From: Candidatus Bathyarchaeota archaeon
GTDB taxonomy: Archaea > Thermoproteota > Bathyarchaeia > Bathyarchaeales > Bathycorpusculaceae
DNA: 64,000 bases
Assembly (NCBI GenBank): GCA_963826715.1
Contig: CAWGYA010000002.1
Location: 32,001 to 96,000 of the forward strand
Direction: 5' to 3'
The translations under genes and the position numbers were made by a program. Each line of letters starts with the position of its first letter. Position 1 is the stretch's first letter. This document shows, piece by piece, positions 4,505-63,404 of the stretch. A model generated the notes under the pieces. That model saw only the letters and a list, made by a program, of their open reading frames with translations. It was not told the origin of the DNA and made no database searches.

Positions 4505-5005
4505 GTGAACTTCAAAGATTCTGAGTTCTTGCTGGCGTTATTAATTGTCATAGTAACAGCCTTGTTTATGGTCGCTGCCTTCCTACATTGGATAAACGTA
4601 AGTTTCTTTGTTGGTCCGCTTCGTTTCAGTCATTGGCTTGCCATAATTGGAACTAGCTACATTGCCATCGATACCCCAGTATTCGTGCTCTTAAAGCGTT
4701 ATTATCCTGAAAAATATAAGGGACTTCTTAGGTACCACATATTCGGTAATCTTCTATTCTTTTCGCTAGTCTCGATTCATTTTTCGGGTCAACTAGGAAG
4801 GTCCGCATTATTCTTTCCGTCTTTGGGAACGGGTTTAGCTATTTACATTTCCATGACTTTAGAAGTGATATCAGGTTTCGCTGAGAGATTCCCATTAATA
4901 AAGCAAATTGACCATAATACTAACAAGTTTATTCACGCCAGTTTGGTTATGGTATTTTTCTTGGTGATAATTTTCCATGTTCTTATCACATTAGGCATTC
5001 TCTAA
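4505..5005 (+). CDS. Integral membrane protein with His residues in TM helices (possibly heme-binding)
   Basis: About 5 hydrophobic helices carrying His (SHW, YHI, IHF, IHA, FHV). Confidence 0.55.
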   Translation: MNFKDSEFLLALLIVIVTALFMVAAFLHWINVSFFVGPLRFSHWLAIIGTSYIAIDTPVFVLLKRYYPEKYKGLLRYHIFGNLLFFSLVSIHFSGQLGRSALFFPSLGTGLAIYISMTLEVISGFAERFPLIKQIDHNTNKFIHASLVMVFFLVIIFHVLITLGIL

Positions 5006-5112
5006 AATCGGGTAGAACTTATCTTTAATATATAACGACCATGCAAGACACGAGTGCTTGCTTGCAAGAAGGGTACCCTTTAGTGATGTATCCTGCTTCA
5101 AGAGGAGGTTCT

Positions 5113-5142
5113 TAGTCGGCGGCAACCCTTGTGGTTGCTCGC
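5113..5142. repeat. 30-bp hairpin motif identical (inverted) to 58820-58849
   Basis: TAGTCGGCGGCAACCCTTGTGGTTGCTCGC is the exact reverse complement of 58820-58849. Internal stem GCAACC-cttgt-GGTTGC. Confidence 0.95.
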
Positions 5143-5182
5143 TTCTATCTATTTTATTCTTTAATCTTACTGTTTAATGTGC

Positions 5183-5202
5183 GGCTGGTGTGTTGGTTGT
5201 AA
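5183..5202 (-). repeat. att site: displaced 3' fragment of rnpB
   Basis: 19/20 identical to 10492-10511, the 3' P1 strand of RNase P RNA. Confidence 0.85.
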
Positions 5203-5284
5203 TTCCACTCCTGTGGAGATATCTCCCGCACCTCTTCCCTTTTTTCATGCTATGGCAACTTAGGGCTTCTGCTGTGCCTAAAAA

Positions 5285-6232
5285 ATGGCATCCCTTCGAG
5301 GCTTCCTCAAAGACTACCTACGACAAAACTTCTCCGTCGATGAAATTGTTGAGAAATACAAAGAATGGGTTTCCGAAAACACCTACATGATACTCTCCAA
5401 ATGGAATAATAAAAAATGGAAAAATGACGTTTTCGCTGTCAAATGCTCCAAACGTGGAAATGATATCTATCGCTGGCGAGTAAAAAGCAGATTTGTAGGT
5501 CTGAGTCATAAAGCAGAGGATTTAGTTTTTTTCAACCCTAAAGACAGAAGTAACGATAAAACTACGTGCGCCCTTTGGACTACACTAACCTATGATACTA
5601 AACTCTGCTCATACAAAGAAGCATGGGAACAAATAGGCATAGAATTTAACGCATTCATGGCTTATGTTAGACGTAATTTTGGAAAGGTTTCCTGTTGCCG
5701 AGTGTTTGAATCCTTCGAGAATGGCTATCCACATATTCATTGTATCTTGCTCTTTTCACAATACACTTTTCAAGTGTTTAGGGATGCTAAAGGTCAATTC
5801 AGAGTGCATGAGAAGGATACTATTGCTAAAGGCTGGCATAGCAACGTTGACGTAAAAGCCATGAGTTCCCTTGCTGGCGGTTTCTCATATCTCAAAAAGT
5901 ACCTGCTAAAAGGCATTGACGCTGAAAACGCTGATTCTAAAGGCTTAAAGACATTGGCTCTCTGTTGGATTTACCGAAAAAGAGCCTTTGCCGTAAGTGG
6001 AACTTTCCGTAAGGCGTTGTCCGACTTGATTACTGATTTGCATAACTCAAACAAACCCACAACACAAGTTACTCTTTTAGGCGAAATAATCCCTGAAGAA
6101 CATTTCTATTTACTCGGTTTCGCCTCAGCTCAGGAACTACAAATAGACAAAAATATTTGGTTCACTATTTTAAATAGTAAACAGTTGACTTTGCTGAATG
6201 ATTGTTTAAAGAAGACATATTATGCTAAGTGA
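5285..6232 (+). CDS. HUH rolling-circle replication initiator (Rep, YxxKY two-tyrosine type)
   Basis: Motif I WTTLTY, motif II GYPHIHCIL, motif III YLKKYLLK. Confidence 0.88.
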   Translation: MASLRGFLKDYLRQNFSVDEIVEKYKEWVSENTYMILSKWNNKKWKNDVFAVKCSKRGNDIYRWRVKSRFVGLSHKAEDLVFFNPKDRSNDKTTCALWTTLTYDTKLCSYKEAWEQIGIEFNAFMAYVRRNFGKVSCCRVFESFENGYPHIHCILLFSQYTFQVFRDAKGQFRVHEKDTIAKGWHSNVDVKAMSSLAGGFSYLKKYLLKGIDAENADSKGLKTLALCWIYRKRAFAVSGTFRKALSDLITDLHNSNKPTTQVTLLGEIIPEEHFYLLGFASAQELQIDKNIWFTILNSKQLTLLNDCLKKTYYAK

Positions 6233-6367
6233 AAAAAATAAAAACAAAATTTAAAAAATAAACCACTGATAGAATACATATAAGAAGCATTCAATAGATT
6301 TTTAATTCTTTATGGTCAACAGCAACAGATTCTTCAGAAACTTAAATAAATATACTTGTTGTAGACT

Positions 6368-7024
6368 ATGGTTGCAATCGATGAAGGTTATTCTATGGCT
6401 CAAGTAATTAAAGCTCAACCCATGGACATGTCCCTTAATTCAATCTGGATGTTAGATCCCGAGTATAAGGGTATCCGCCAATCTTTAGAAAGTAAAGGAT
6501 ATACATTAAAAGAAGAATCAAGAGGCATCTTGACTATAATTGCATCCAAAGGTACAGTAGAAATATTTGTGAATCTGCAAAGGCGTGTATTGGGTATTGG
6601 TAGCGAAACTTCGTCTAAAGATATGCTTGCAGCATATGACGACTTGGATCAAACCTTTACTGATATCGGTATGGAACCTTCTAATCTAATGTTTATTGAG
6701 TTTATAGGCAATTTTATAGTAGAATCCCCTGTAAGTCCAATAGAGACACTGAAAGGTCTAAAATTTGAAAATGATTTATTAATGAAAATAGGTGTAATTT
6801 TAGAAAAAGATGTTGCAAATGTCGGGATAAATCTTACTCTGAAGGAAGCTAATCCTACTGGATCCAATTGGTTGCATATGGTAATTGAACCACTATATCC
6901 AAGCCCTAATAAAAAATATCGTGTTAGAACGATATGTAGAGGCGACAAAGAAGAAGTACTAAAATTTGTTAAAAATATTGAGAAAAGACTGCCAAGAATA
7001 ATTGAAAAAATTGAGAGGAAATAA
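6368..7024 (+). CDS. Hypothetical cargo protein, first gene of a three-gene operon
   Basis: 218-aa ORF, AT-rich; next gene starts 3 bp after its stop. Confidence 0.7.
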   Translation: MVAIDEGYSMAQVIKAQPMDMSLNSIWMLDPEYKGIRQSLESKGYTLKEESRGILTIIASKGTVEIFVNLQRRVLGIGSETSSKDMLAAYDDLDQTFTDIGMEPSNLMFIEFIGNFIVESPVSPIETLKGLKFENDLLMKIGVILEKDVANVGINLTLKEANPTGSNWLHMVIEPLYPSPNKKYRVRTICRGDKEEVLKFVKNIEKRLPRIIEKIERK

Positions 7025-7027
7025 ATT

Positions 7028-7585
7028 ATGGCTCTTTCTGAAGAAAGCACAGGTTTTAGTTTATACGATTGTTCATATTTAACCGAAAGAGATATCGCTT
7101 CTTCTCAGCCAGATTTTTACAAAGAGAGACAATCTTTGGAGCAAAAACCTGAAAAGCTAATAAATATTCTACAAACGCATGAACCGATTTCTGTTGTAAG
7201 TAGAGTTGAAAATTTGCTGTCAAGTGCTGCCGCAAGTGACTACCCACTTAGCCTAAATACTAAACCAATTTATGAAATTTCAGAAGATGCTAATACTTAC
7301 ATTAGTAGACAGAAAAATTTTTCTAAATATGAAAAAGAAATTACGAAAATATCTTGTTGCATATCTGAATTTTTAACCAAGGAAGGTATTTCATCAAAGA
7401 TCACAGTGAGTCTCTTTTCTGATCCTGAATATTCAAACTGGATTGAACCAAGAATCCAAATCGGGGTTAGACAGGAAACTCTACAGAAAACTTATGCCCT
7501 TTTTAATGAACTATTAGAATACTCATTTGTAGGAATATCAAAAAAAACATTAAAAAAGATCGTCGTTACTATTGATAGCCAATAA
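7028..7585 (+). CDS. Hypothetical cargo protein, putative antitoxin partner of the downstream HEPN protein
   Basis: 185-aa ORF abutting the HEPN gene; C-terminal domain contains SLFSDPE. Function inferred from context only. Confidence 0.55.
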   Translation: MALSEESTGFSLYDCSYLTERDIASSQPDFYKERQSLEQKPEKLINILQTHEPISVVSRVENLLSSAAASDYPLSLNTKPIYEISEDANTYISRQKNFSKYEKEITKISCCISEFLTKEGISSKITVSLFSDPEYSNWIEPRIQIGVRQETLQKTYALFNELLEYSFVGISKKTLKKIVVTIDSQ

Positions 7586-8032
7586 GTGGTAATCATGATA
7601 GCTCCCTGCAGCTTCATGCTGTTTGCAAAGAAGCTCGTTCAGCAAACAAATGCTCCTGAAGAAGAGTATCGATCAGCAGTAAGCAGAGCATATTATTCAT
7701 TATACCATGAAACGCTTCATCATTTGGTTCAAAAATATTCATTTGATTTAATAAATAGCATTGAAAAAGCCAAAAGAAGACAATTGACTCAGCATGAAAA
7801 AACCAGACTTAGCGCGCTTGACCCCACCTTTTTGAGAAAATTTAACCTTCATCAAGCAATTTCTGACACGCTTTTTGACCTAAATTATCGGGCAGTTGCA
7901 ACAACTTTTAAGGGTTATAGAGCTCATCGAAATCAAGCCGATTATGACCTAAAACGAAATTTAACACATATTGAAGCAGATGTTATAGTAAAGAACATTG
8001 ATGTTTTTATTGGCGCCATTAAAGCGCTTTAA
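7586..8032 (+). CDS. HEPN domain protein (UPF0332-like)
   Basis: YRSAVSRAYYSLYH and RNQADYD motifs typical of this HEPN class. Confidence 0.82.
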   Translation: MVIMIAPCSFMLFAKKLVQQTNAPEEEYRSAVSRAYYSLYHETLHHLVQKYSFDLINSIEKAKRRQLTQHEKTRLSALDPTFLRKFNLHQAISDTLFDLNYRAVATTFKGYRAHRNQADYDLKRNLTHIEADVIVKNIDVFIGAIKAL

Positions 8033-8161
8033 AACAAGTCAGGTATTAATAAATTAAATAAAAATTTTCCAAAAGCTGATTTAAGAAAGTCGTAAGAGAA
8101 TAAAAGTAATACGTGTAAATCATAGGAGTTTTTGGGATTGTGCCGAGGGAGGAGTGCGGGG

Positions 8162-8260
8162 GGGTACCCTTTAGGGTGGGGTCATCCGCTACGACGACCG
8201 AGGCGCTTAACGGTCGTCGTCTGGAACGTGCGAGGCGAGCGGTAGCCGCCGAGCCACAAA
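8162..8260. other. GC-rich hairpin cluster in element 1 (candidate replication origin or terminator)
   Basis: Perfect 10-bp inverted repeat ACGACGACCG (8191-8200) / CGGTCGTCGT (8211-8220) between convergent genes; 13-mer GGGTACCCTTTAG shared with 5071-5083. Confidence 0.5.
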
Positions 8261-8263
8261 AAA

Positions 8264-8983
8264 CTACTTTCTTACTCTTTTTCCAGTTTCCTTTCTTTTT
8301 CGATATAGCTCACGGTCACTTCTTAACGCATTGGTCAATAGCTCAATTTTCTCAAAAAGTGCTTTTTTGTAGTTATCATTGTAACGACATTTTTCACTTG
8401 CTCTTTCCAATTGAACTCTATATGTAGGTCTTACGACGTAGTTCCAAAAAGATTCGTCGTTTTCGCCATTTTTTAGCTGTAAACCGTCATTTATTGAAAG
8501 TCTCAATTCCCAAAGGTTCAATGCCATAATATCATGTAAATCTCGGTCAGTTTCAAAATCTATTTCGTCGTCAGAAAGATTGCTGTAAAACTCTTCTGTG
8601 GTTATGGGTAAAGCTCGCAATTCTGGGGGAAGGCATGCATTGTTACCAAGGTCAAGGTACTCCAGAATTTCCTCCTTTGGCATAATCATTATGCTTCTAA
8701 ACTTGTCGCTTAAAGCGTAGGTTACCTCTTGAAAGCCAGTTTCAACCCGCTTAACCAACTTCTTTTCCTCTAAATGTTTTAGGTGTTTAGACAAAACCTT
8801 ATTGGTTATCTCGGTGTCTGTCAATTTGGTAACAGCGCTTTTTAGGTAACCAAATCTAAGAATTTTATCCTCCAACAAAATTCTAAGAATGCTCTGGCAA
8901 GTATGGTCAAGAAATTCGGCTGAATCAAACAAAGACTCTCTTTCCTTCTCATCCATTGGCGTTTCATTAACCATTAGATACAC
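8264..8983 (-). CDS. Winged-helix (HxlR/MarR-like) regulator of element 1
   Basis: LRFGYLK...ITNKVLSKHLKHLEEKKLVKR...VTYAL wHTH; divergent from the integrase operon. Confidence 0.75.
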   Translation of the reverse strand: MYLMVNETPMDEKERESLFDSAEFLDHTCQSILRILLEDKILRFGYLKSAVTKLTDTEITNKVLSKHLKHLEEKKLVKRVETGFQEVTYALSDKFRSIMIMPKEEILEYLDLGNNACLPPELRALPITTEEFYSNLSDDEIDFETDRDLHDIMALNLWELRLSINDGLQLKNGENDESFWNYVVRPTYRVQLERASEKCRYNDNYKKALFEKIELLTNALRSDRELYRKRKETGKRVRK

Positions 8984-8992
8984 CCTGTGAAT

Positions 8993-9014
8993 TGGGTACC
9001 AGACTGGGTACCAG
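8993..9014. promoter_or_regulatory. Tandem TGGGTACCAG repeats, putative operator in the divergent promoter
   Basis: Two exact 10-bp copies (8993-9002, 9005-9014) next to the TATA-like TTATTAATAT. Confidence 0.5.
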
Positions 9015-9056
9015 TTATTAATATACTCTTTTTGAGCCTTAAACTCCGTTGGAGGT

Positions 9057-9290
9057 TTGACGGTGAAAAATCAATTAAAACCTAACCAGATAGGCATAGA
9101 AGTAAATGATGTGGACTTAAACAAGATCTGTCGAGTAGGCAAAAAAGTGCAAGTGTTCCTATGCAGAAAAATCGATGACCCATTTGAAATCTACTTGCTC
9201 CTAAAAATCCTCTGCTATTCACTTGAGGAGAAAATGCATTTTCTTCTAGACCCTGAAGACGAACAAGCACTAAGAAAAATTTTTGCTTAA
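9057..9290 (+). CDS. Small hypothetical protein upstream of the integrase
   Basis: 77-aa ORF preceded by a GGAGG Shine-Dalgarno; co-oriented with the integrase. Confidence 0.6.
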   Translation: MTVKNQLKPNQIGIEVNDVDLNKICRVGKKVQVFLCRKIDDPFEIYLLLKILCYSLEEKMHFLLDPEDEQALRKIFA

Positions 9291-9314
9291 TAATCAACTA
9301 AACGAGGTTTAGAG

Positions 9315-10463
9315 TTGACTGCTCAAATAAATGTGAGTGGAGGTGAAAAGGCAAACAGAGAATGTCCTAATTGTCATAGTAAGAAAAACTGGAAAAGAGG
9401 AAAAAGAGAAAATCAATTTGGCTCAATTCAGCGGTTTATTTGTCGAGAATGCGGTTCAAGTTTTAGTGAAAAATCATATAAAGATTATCAGCTATCAAAC
9501 AATAGCCAATTATGCGCTAAATTAGAGGCGAAAAAATTGGATACTGCAACAGAATTAAAAACTGTTGCGGGAGATAACAACGAACAAGGGGAAATCATAG
9601 CTTTCCTATGGCACCTAAAAAAGCAAGGGTACAGCGAGTCTACAATCCATACAAGAGTAAAGATACTGAAATTCATGAGAAAACAAAGCGTGAACCTACA
9701 AGATCCTGAAGCGGTCAAGCTTTTCATTGCAAAACGCGAAGAATGGAGCAATGGACATAAACAAATTGCCGTAACCTCCTACGATGGCTTTGCAGAAATG
9801 CTAAAAATAAAATGGGAACCACCGTTCTATGAAAACAACAAAACACTTCCTTTCGTTCCAACAGAAAAAGAAGTCGATGCACTAGTTTCCGCATGCAGCA
9901 AAAAAATAGCTACCTCATTATTAGCAATGAAAGAAACAGGCTTTAGAATAGGCGAACTATGGAAATGCAAATGGACTGACTTAGACGAGGAAAATAGTAC
10001 ACTCAAATGCATAGCAGAAAAACACGGCAATCCAAGACAAATCAAAATATCAAGCAGATTAGTTTCGATGCTCTTAGCACTACCAAAGATAAACGATTAC
10101 ATCTTCGCTAACTCCAATCTAAACGGTCACAGATGGCGATTCGACAAACAGAAAAAAGCCCTATCGATAAAACTACAAAACCCAAGGCTCAAACAAATAA
10201 AATTCCATAGCATGAGACACTTCAAAGCATCAAAAGAATACGCCCAAACCAGAGACATACTACACGTCAAAGAGTTTCTCGGTCATAGGAACATCAACAG
10301 CACCTTAGTTTATACACACTTAGTTCCTTTCGATGACGACGCACAAGGCTATAATCACGCAACCGCAAAAGACGAGAAAGAAGCAGGAGAGCTAATTGAT
10401 AACGGTTTCCAATATGTTTGTTCTACTCCACAGGGAGTCATGATGTTTAGAAAACGCAAGTAA
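9315..10463 (+). CDS. Tyrosine recombinase/integrase with N-terminal zinc ribbon
   Basis: CPNC...CREC ribbon; catalytic residues in GFRIGE, AEKHG, HSMRH, LGH and TLVY. Confidence 0.92.
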   Translation: MTAQINVSGGEKANRECPNCHSKKNWKRGKRENQFGSIQRFICRECGSSFSEKSYKDYQLSNNSQLCAKLEAKKLDTATELKTVAGDNNEQGEIIAFLWHLKKQGYSESTIHTRVKILKFMRKQSVNLQDPEAVKLFIAKREEWSNGHKQIAVTSYDGFAEMLKIKWEPPFYENNKTLPFVPTEKEVDALVSACSKKIATSLLAMKETGFRIGELWKCKWTDLDEENSTLKCIAEKHGNPRQIKISSRLVSMLLALPKINDYIFANSNLNGHRWRFDKQKKALSIKLQNPRLKQIKFHSMRHFKASKEYAQTRDILHVKEFLGHRNINSTLVYTHLVPFDDDAQGYNHATAKDEKEAGELIDNGFQYVCSTPQGVMMFRKRK

Positions 10464-10491
10464 AGATACACCTAGGCGGGTTAGTAAAATA

Positions 10492-10801
10492 GGCTGGTGT
10501 ATTGGTTGTAACCCGCCTTTTGTTATTGTGGCATTTGGCTAATCGGGCTACCCGCGCCTTCCGGTAGATGCTTCATCGGCGTCTGTTTGCCCTTTCCACT
10601 TGCAGGACGGCCGTTTCACCGGTTCCCGTTCAGCGGACTCGGCATCACAAATGCGTCATTGCCATATCTGAAGGGACGTTTCGTTTCTGCTCTGTTGCCA
10701 AGCCTTTAGGCCTGCCCCATAGGAGCTGCAATTCTACATGTGGGCGGAGTTTCCTCAGACCCTTTGCAGGGTCCGACAGCCACGCACCAACCCACCAACC
10801 C
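10492..10801 (-). ncRNA. rnpB: RNase P RNA
   Basis: Minus strand has CR-I GAGGAAACUCCGCC, GAAACGGC and CR-V AACAAAAGGCGGGUUA (P4 pairing). 5' GGUUGGUG pairs with 3' CACCAGCC (P1). TATA-like CTTTATCT about 25 bp upstream. Confidence 0.93.
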
Positions 10802-11049
10802 ATGGTGTAAAAGGCAGTCGCAAGAAGATAAAGTTTAGCTGCGGTAATTTTACAAATAGCACACAAAAACGAATTGTTCAAGCGTGAGCTGAAAATGAAA
10901 GGTAAGGTAAAATCTGAAATATCAGGAAAATTTGATGCCGTTTCGTTTATGAGATTTTGGTGTTGTGCAGATACAGTCACAAATTTTTAAAAGCAGTATA
11001 TCTCAAATGATACTGGCGACATGTAATTTATCTTTGGGAGGTGCATTTT

Positions 11050-32529: not shown

Positions 32530-32894
32530 CGTTAAGTCTAAATTTTATGAAAACCAAGAAGGGACCTGCAGGAATTTTGGGCAGTTACTGGGGTGAAGGG
32601 AAATTTGTTGTGTCAGACCCCTTCTTGGTTATCTGGGTTCTTTTAGCCTGAGGTTTTATTAAACAATTTTTCATAATATTACCCAAATCAGACCCGAATT
32701 GTCACAGCGACAAGGCTTAAGGAATTAAATCTTCACACTAAGATCCAGCAAAGAGTTTGAAAAAGCGAAGACATTTTTAGTAAAGGATTACGGATATGTT
32801 TGCGGAATCCTTTTTCTGGGTATAAAAGCACACATTTATTACTAAAACTAACCAAACACTGATCAAGAATCCTTACGCACGGAGTGGTGAGAAA

Positions 32895-62425: not shown

Positions 62426-62672
62426 TATCAAGGGCTTGGAAATTCCGCATACGTAATAATGCATGCTTTAGAATCAGCATATGAACCACATATCTGATAA
62501 AAAATCACATCAAACCGAGCACAGGAAATTTTAGGAACCGAAACTTTTCCTTAGTTATCATTTAAAAGATTTTTATCAAGTTGCGAAAAGAACAAGAGAG
62601 TTATACCAAGCGCTGACTTGGAGGAAGAAAATCTTATAAAGAAATCAATCTTAATGAAGTGTAGGGATTAAA

Positions 62673-62957
62673 TTGGAAAAAGTATTAGAAATGATAGGAA
62701 AAATGGTATTTGCACAAGATTTCGTTTTAGGCAAAGTCACAAATGTTCTCTTTGACCCTGAAGACCTCAAAATATCGCATCTGGAAATCGAATTAAACAA
62801 TAAAGCTACCAGTGAATTATTCGGTGCAAAAAAAGCATTCAAAAACAATCTTGCCATTTCAGCTCTCAAAGAAGGCGCCCAAGCTTTTTCAGGAAGAGGC
62901 ATAGAGCTCAAAGTCAGCAAAGGGCAACTAAACATTTACCTACGGCCTACTACATAA
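62673..62957 (+). CDS. PRC-barrel domain protein, paralog of 58939-59232
   Basis: Shared KI.HLEIEL...A..E..GA, N.LAISAL..G and GI.L.V.K.QL.IYLRP. Confidence 0.75.
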   Translation: MEKVLEMIGKMVFAQDFVLGKVTNVLFDPEDLKISHLEIELNNKATSELFGAKKAFKNNLAISALKEGAQAFSGRGIELKVSKGQLNIYLRPTT

Positions 62958-63404
62958 CAACCTTTTTTGACCATATTAAATTTCTTTTTTGATTTTTTTA
63001 TAATTAATTATTATGAGTTAGTATAATTTTTTCCTGAAGAATAAAATCCTGAAAAACACCCTTTAAGATCCTTCCTCACATGCCTGCCTTCAAACGTGTA
63101 TTTTCTCGACTAATCCACTTTATAGAGAGTAGTTAATGGTTTAGTTTGATCTATTTCTGAAAAACATCTTACCGATGATACCAATCAATTATAGCTTCGC
63201 AGACTTTTTTTGAATACCCACAACTTGGAAGAGTAGCAAAAACAGAATCTATTTTGGCGTAGTCAATTACAGCATTCATACGTAAATTCTGATATTTTAG
63301 CATATAAATTATATGGATTCTAGTTAACAACGTATATTTGTAGAACAACAATACAGAATTAGTTATCGTTTAAGAAAGCATAGGGGAACACTTATGAATC
63401 ATTT

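Follow-up and report, generated by a model that had tools for sequence, protein, structure and literature searches.

A candidate accessory integrase site that copies the target's far half-site at the att junctions of two archaeal integrated elements

Two integrated elements in the stretch of DNA analysed here (64 kb, hereafter the window), one at the 3' end of the RNase P RNA gene and one at a C/D-box-like small RNA gene, each carry a 10-bp dyad at the integrase-proximal att junction. We favor the reading, at a probability of roughly 60%, that each dyad marks an accessory integrase-binding site that copies the far half-site of the target and lies beside a conventional crossover core; we refer to the copy in the element's arm as the P-site. 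Both dyads had been described in a first-pass annotation, and we recovered them at the same positions in an exhaustive scan for perfect inverted repeats (at least 10 bp, spacer of 3 to 60 nt) across the window and the 2.64-Mb genome. The window holds five such repeats, two of which are these dyads. Its sequence is archaeal, and ten host ORFs compared with NCBIfam proved to be common archaeal genes, none of them a taxon marker. A perfect 12-bp inverted repeat (AACCAAGAAGGG, 55-nt spacer) at 32552-32630 is unrelated to both elements.

The features of element 1 and its target are as follows:

5183-5202, plus strand: distal att core (attL), the displaced 3' end of the RNase P RNA; G at 5192
5201-5208, plus strand: putative element-side far half-site of attP (C'), AATTCCAC, a weak copy
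5285-6232, plus strand: replication protein of the rolling-circle type (PF23343 REP_ORF2-G2P, E = 3.3e-07, 30.9 bits, cut-off 27.8)
9315-10463, plus strand: integrase 1, a tyrosine recombinase of 382 aa (PF00589, Phage_integrase catalytic domain, E = 6.9e-18)
10474-10483 and 10509-10518: left arm AGGCGGGTTA and right arm TAACCCGCCT of the dyad, spacer of 25 nt
10475-10482, plus strand: P-site GGCGGGTT, the core of the left arm and a putative accessory integrase site
10492-10511, plus strand: integrase-proximal att core (attR); A at 10501
10496-10503, plus strand: putative near half-site GGTGTATT, following the pattern GGnGnGTT except for the element-derived A at 10501
10504-10509, plus strand: overlap GGTTGT (putative limits), the candidate strand-exchange region, within 10502-10511
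10510-10517, plus strand: far half-site AACCCGCC, host DNA and the core of the right arm
10497-10795, minus strand: archaeal RNase P RNA gene, the target (RF00373, 170.2 bits, model positions 1-288)

Direct repeats of 20 bp (5183-5202 and 10492-10511, 19/20 identical), a pair that the RNase P RNA gene overlaps, mark the two ends of the 5.3-kb element 1. The gene for integrase 1, whose N-terminal part has a CxxC...CxxC stretch, lies at the end of the element with its stop codon facing the 3' end of the RNase P RNA gene. Given these repeat limits, positions 10512-10518 fall outside the direct repeat and inside the RNase P RNA gene, and the first-pass annotation was right to describe the right arm as mostly host sequence beyond the shared core. 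The far half-site lies within an RNase P stretch, GGCGGGUUAC, that is unpaired in the Rfam model. The near half-site, the P-site and the far half-site of element 1 have the pattern GGnGnGTT in common. Just upstream of the P-site, ATACACC (10466-10472) is an inverted copy of GGTGTAT (10496-10502) in the near half-site, an arrangement seen only here and at one other locus (L119).

We compared contigs of four public runs with positions 4600-11000 of the window. In run X2, a 697-nt contig passes straight from 5192 into 10502 and represents an empty RNase P site; ten letters at the junction fit either side, and it has G at the single variable position of the repeat. Runs X1, X3 and X4 yielded no contig spanning the empty site, a lack of coverage that carries no weight. 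Since G is found in attB and in attL (5192) and A in attR, the A at 10501 comes from the element and strand exchange falls within 10502-10511, an interval that includes the putative overlap at 10504-10509. A contig of run X4 contains an attP-like junction of a related element, in which the integrase end and the P arm are joined via the core to sequence like 5203-5359. This arrangement suggests that excised or tandem forms of such elements exist.

Element 2 has the following features:

54517-54587, minus strand: C/D-box-like small RNA gene of about 70 nt, the target; boxes assigned by eye
54562-54571 and 54599-54608: left arm ACTGGGACGG and right arm CCGTCCCAGT of the dyad, spacer of 27 nt
54563-54570, plus strand: far half-site CTGGGACG, the core of the left arm
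54571-54577, plus strand: putative overlap GCGACAT, the centre of the 23-bp identity block
54578-54585, plus strand: putative near half-site CATCCCCC, 5/8 to the inverted far half-site
54600-54607, plus strand: P-site CGTCCCAG, the core of the right arm and a putative accessory integrase site
54644-55588, plus strand: integrase 2, a tyrosine recombinase of 314 aa (PF00589, E = 5.4e-07)
59661-59683, plus strand: distal att core, an exact copy of 54563-54585
59698-59705, plus strand: P-site-like sequence CGTCCCCG, 7/8 of the right arm, after the second core copy

Element 2 spans 5.1 kb between exact 23-bp repeats (54563-54585 and 59661-59683, 23/23) and takes the place of the upstream flank of the small RNA gene. 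Its left arm lies almost entirely within the identity block, and the dyad is therefore present in the free element too. Integrase 2 is 27% identical to integrase 1 (E = 9e-23); it begins where the N-terminal residues of integrase 1 (about 95) end and has no CxxC...CxxC stretch. The stretch to the right of element 2 (59684-63000) has low GC, and its first 30 nt or so are identical to the arm of another element (L052), with no integrase after them; because of this identical flank we take the stretch to be a tandem relic element rather than native host DNA. For the same reason we rejected a second CCGTCCC (59697-59703) as proof that the dyad is a host feature.

The small RNA gene is present in 53 of 60 other genomes of the genus. 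Rfam gave weak C/D-box matches below the gathering threshold (snR67, E = 0.058, 20.4 bits), and a search of the genome for a guide target gave no rRNA match, though the rRNA is possibly unassembled. Judging from the loci compared (54517-54587 on the minus strand of the window, L043-L071 and L173-L190), the gene is an integration hot spot, with an integrase or a relic directly upstream of it at nearly every locus examined in the genus and at many in the family; no undoubtedly native upstream flank was found among the loci examined. Fifteen other genomes of the genus have a second short core copy, and one of them a third, mostly on the same contig as the gene and 1-7 kb from it (22 kb in one case).

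The geometry of the two junctions is alike. In both elements the P-site equals the far half-site on the opposite strand at 8/8 positions, and it lies in the same orientation 21 bp (element 1) or 22 bp (element 2) from the near half-site. Candidate cores can be laid out as 8+6+8 bp in element 1 (symmetry 6/8 in the native G form) and as 8+7+8 bp in element 2 (5/8), and the 23-bp identity block of element 2 is exactly 8+7+8; the 16 short second core copies in the 15 other genomes of the genus span about the same stretch as this block. The internal core dyads, at 6/8 and 5/8, are weak and not significant alone. We infer that the half-sites and overlap delimited inside each wide dyad form an ordinary tyrosine-recombinase core. 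Of the possibilities raised by the first-pass annotation, unusually spaced binding sites came closest, but the 25- to 27-nt spacer is no crossover spacer: it contains the near half-site and the 6- to 7-bp overlap.

We propose that the integrase-proximal att junction holds three integrase-recognition sites and that each dyad is made up of two of them. The core at which crossover takes place would be conventional, with an 8-bp near half-site, a 6- to 7-bp overlap and an 8-bp far half-site, and the P-site would be the third site, in the element arm, two helical turns (21-22 bp) from the near half-site. The appearance of an inverted target copy with a 25- to 27-nt spacer would arise because the P-site is the far half-site read on the other strand. 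An extra integrase protomer could bind the P-site through the same DNA-binding surface that reads the core and could help to build the recombination complex at attP and attR, or to orient or bias it, a role for which DR1/DR2, used by TnpI on the Tn4430 IRS, may serve as precedent. In element 2 the P-site lies between the core and the start of the integrase gene, and binding there might also feed back on integrase transcription. Both the binding and the role of the P-site are what we infer from sequence. As a counterpoint, the P-site resembles the near half-site less closely than the far one (in element 1 a piece of host DNA), a preference that a simple cooperative-loading model would not lead one to expect.

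The first-pass annotation had proposed asking whether the inverted copy co-varies with the target across relatives. It does, and no arm carries the copy of the other target. We took all distinct arms flanking an RNase P 3' end in the loci collected (n = 15) and 42 distinct arms at the small-RNA core. At a threshold of at least 7/8, 10 of the 15 RNase P arms match AACCCGCC, five of them perfectly, and 29 of the 42 small-RNA arms match CGTCCCAG, 27 of these at arm position 14-17; on both sides the copy keeps a fixed distance. These counts, like the Wilcoxon values also obtained, overstate independence because the loci are related. The small-RNA motif reached this threshold in 0/15 RNase-P-side arms and the RNase P motif in 0/42 small-RNA-side arms; shuffled arms matched at 7/8 in 62 of 3000 trials. 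The far half-site stretch is identical in 15/15 RNase P loci, an invariance that holds by construction because the search pattern demanded it. A copy at 7/8 or better is absent from 13/42 small-RNA arms and 5/15 RNase P arms, several of which look like relics.

The RNase P set includes relatives of integrase 1 (44-87% identity, copy at an offset of 20-21 bp) and also an integrase-2-like lineage, 31-35% identical to integrase 2, in which the gene is reversed and the copy lies at offset 24. The latter is represented by loci L194-L201 at the RNase P RNA 3' end, where the gene start faces the att site; because this lineage has inserted there too, RNase P RNA has been targeted repeatedly by separate lineages. 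Offsets of 24 and 44 occur in other lineages, as compared to 20-21 in the integrase-1 lineages and 22 in element 2. Some RNase P relatives (L015, L017 and the X4 contig, whose P-site is of this version) have a direct copy of the near half-site at the P-site position. All versions, the near-half-site ones included, fit GGnGnnTT, as would be expected of protein recognition and not of pairing. Among 34 small-RNA P-sites, C.TCCC is almost invariant, with variation elsewhere.

Integrase 1 has relatives in 200 of 301 genomes drawn from the order, and this genome alone has about a dozen integrase paralogues; paralogues and relatives alike lie for the most part beside tRNA 3' ends, where the identity blocks run from the 3' end to the T-loop. 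We collected 136 junction strings. In 61 of them a convergent tRNA was called 15-100 nt past the stop codon of the integrase, and these were dereplicated to 54; the remaining 75 were set aside for lack of such a call, for running into a contig end or for having a different target. In 23 of the 54 tRNA junctions the arm repeats the core start in direct orientation, as compared to 7.6% in a cross-target control using the cores of other tRNA types, and 17 of 25 direct-copy matches lay at offsets of 20-21. The target's first 45 nt recurred as an inverted copy at 17/54 junctions (control, 11.6%). The arm repeats of these tRNA-targeting relatives are heterogeneous, being direct or inverted and present in one to three copies. 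Phased target-matching arm repeats are thus a trait of the family, and their orientation is not fixed. We also tried to assign half-sites in the tRNA relatives from GGGTTYRTCC-like arm repeats and rejected the attempt, as the symmetry of the T-arm makes direct and inverted copies inseparable.

The copy might instead serve the host RNA gene, supplying a terminator, promoter, leader or processing structure because the element has replaced one flank of an essential gene. Both elements do replace such a flank: element 1 provides the RNase P RNA with a new 3' trailer, in which a T-run directly follows the 3' end, and element 2 supplies a new upstream region for the small RNA, in which TATA-like strings adjoin the P-site. 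Oligo-T is sufficient for archaeal transcription termination, however, and the native RNase P trailer lacks the P-site motif, so that the P-site is the element's own rather than a property of the host gene. As RNA, the copy could pair with the terminal part of the gene, but the RNA would probably suffer if its P4 strand or guide were paired in this way. Moreover, one gene has the motif downstream and the other has it upstream, while its geometry relative to the crossover is identical. We consider a service to the RNA gene unlikely.

A comparably low probability attaches to the arm copies being leftovers of past recombination or core duplication with no present function. Tandem arrays and relics are common at these sites, and the arm repeats of the tRNA relatives, with their one to three copies, resemble degenerate core duplicates. 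Yet the position and phasing of the copy recur with integrases that are 27-45% identical and with the opposite gene orientation, and the pattern positions are conserved while the spacers diverge. Simple core duplication would also not yield the copy in element 1, which is inverted and corresponds to host sequence lying beyond the identity block.

Pairing between nucleic acids, in which the arm copy and the far half-site form a single-stranded DNA hairpin during rolling-circle replication or a base-pairing address that chooses the target, was raised by the first-pass annotation and appears to us improbable. The arms show perfect complementarity, single strands of both junctions fold (about -10 kcal/mol, z of -2.2 to -3.0) and the copy changes with the target across lineages. 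Element 1 encodes a replication protein of the rolling-circle type, and single-stranded intermediates are therefore possible for it; relatives from the same integrase family, however, reside in elements of 20-40 kb. For element 2, attP includes both arms. The folded single-stranded attP nevertheless fails for element 1, where the partner arm is host DNA outside the identity block, which the free element does not have. Only 6/10 positions of the counterpart that the element itself carries, TAATTCCACT (5200-5209), are complementary to the P-site arm, and an attP of element 1 rebuilt by slicing folds differently and without this stem, although the attR stretch does fold. A 10-bp stem would also yield a duplex of just one half-site, with the near half-site and overlap falling in the 25- to 27-nt loop, and we know of no tyrosine-recombinase substrate in which a one-half-site stem is combined with a single-stranded near half-site and overlap.

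The idea of a base-pairing address is disfavored by the variation among the copies. Within one target, an invariant target sequence faces copies with up to 2/8 non-wobble mismatches, and the copy differs between targets. The commonest deviations of the small-RNA P-sites, CATCCCAG (12) and CGTTCCAG (2), would be wobble pairs on opposite strands, other deviations are plain mismatches, and the RNase P copies vary likewise; the mismatches of P-site variants with the invariant target include C-A, G-A and T-C types. The direct near-half-site copies that some RNase P relatives have instead point the same way. The specific proposal that a tyrosine integrase is guided to its target by an unwound or transcribed P-site strand pairing with the far half-site there is, in our estimate, highly improbable. 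Were pairing correct, retargeting from tRNA to RNase P RNA to C/D small RNA would need a short change of address alone.

Finally, although each repeat is just 10 bp, coincidence of two unrelated inverted repeats has a negligible probability: the genome-wide scan found 227 such repeats in 2.64 Mb, and since this background of about 1 per 11.6 kb gives a chance of about 1% per 100-bp junction while both junctions have a repeat, and the copy recurs among relatives, the dyads at both att junctions are not due to chance.

Returning to an accessory site that repeats the far half-site, the closest verified precedent for accessory motifs sharing the core motif is TnpI of Tn4430. Its IRS has two inverted core motifs and two adjacent accessory motifs with a common 9-bp sequence, and the extra protomers, bound to the accessory motifs, fix the architecture of the synapse, the order of strand exchange and directionality (PMC2847244). 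As with TnpI, the candidate accessory motif here lies beside the core and has the core recognition sequence, the P-site being the far half-site at 8/8. The IRS serves cointegrate resolution between two identical sites, whereas the reaction here would be integration and excision between unlike attP and attB; each of the two elements has just one candidate accessory site, placed 21-22 bp away from the core and copying the far half-site.

In lambda, the arm sites are unlike the core sites in sequence and are bound by a separate N-terminal domain. In both elements here, by contrast, the arm site has the sequence of a core half-site and changes with the target, and integrase 2 lacks the N-terminal extension of integrase 1 while its P-site is still present. 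There is also a likeness to lambda-type integrases, which a review on tyrosine recombinases of archaea summarizes (PMC8371274), in that attP exceeds attB in size and extra candidate sites lie in the integrase-side arm and are kept in one prophage junction. By a term search, the review mentions arm binding for lambda only and does not mention RNase P (PMC8371274). For SNJ2, conserved P and P' arms have been noted and a separate DNA-binding protein has been proposed (PMC5861418).

Further comparisons concern folded sites and RNA-gene targets. With the CTX-phi attP(+) and integron attC, the two elements have in common inverted repeats in a mobile element near the recombination point, and element 1 adds a replication protein of the rolling-circle type. 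In the CTX-phi attP(+), used by XerCD, and in attC, both arms are mobile DNA and the folded stem forms a recombination site with two half-sites. Here one arm of the element 1 dyad is host DNA, the stem would make a single half-site, and both hairpin arms lie in mobile DNA in element 2 only. As in tRNA-gene integration, insertion occurs at the end of a structured RNA gene, which is restored; integration into tRNA genes reportedly falls at the symmetric T-arm or anticodon arm (the sublocation classes of Williams), while the two elements here target the RNase P RNA 3' end and a C/D-box-like small RNA in its 5' part. Our full-text literature searches turned up no account of RNase P RNA serving as an integration site in archaea.

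If the P-site has the role that we propose, a very widespread family of archaeal integrases would use an attP arm site that repeats a target half-site at a fixed phase. The target of such an element could then be read from the element alone, the crossover point would be easier to place, and simple integrases without a lambda-type arm-binding domain would gain a testable model for directionality. The two elements also document two unusual integration targets, the RNase P RNA 3' end and the C/D-box-like small RNA, each used by separate lineages.

Outside the window, tandem arrays of elements occur at tRNA-Pro and tRNA-Leu (contigs C7 and C8), and C8 has three copies of one 24- to 25-nt core within 24 kb. 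Inside element 1, a 40-bp island (8154-8193) is the sole match to contigs of runs X1 and X2, with divergence on either side, and it is adjoined by a perfect 10-bp inverted repeat (8191-8200 and 8211-8220). The region 8154-8220 may be the replication origin of this Rep-encoding element.
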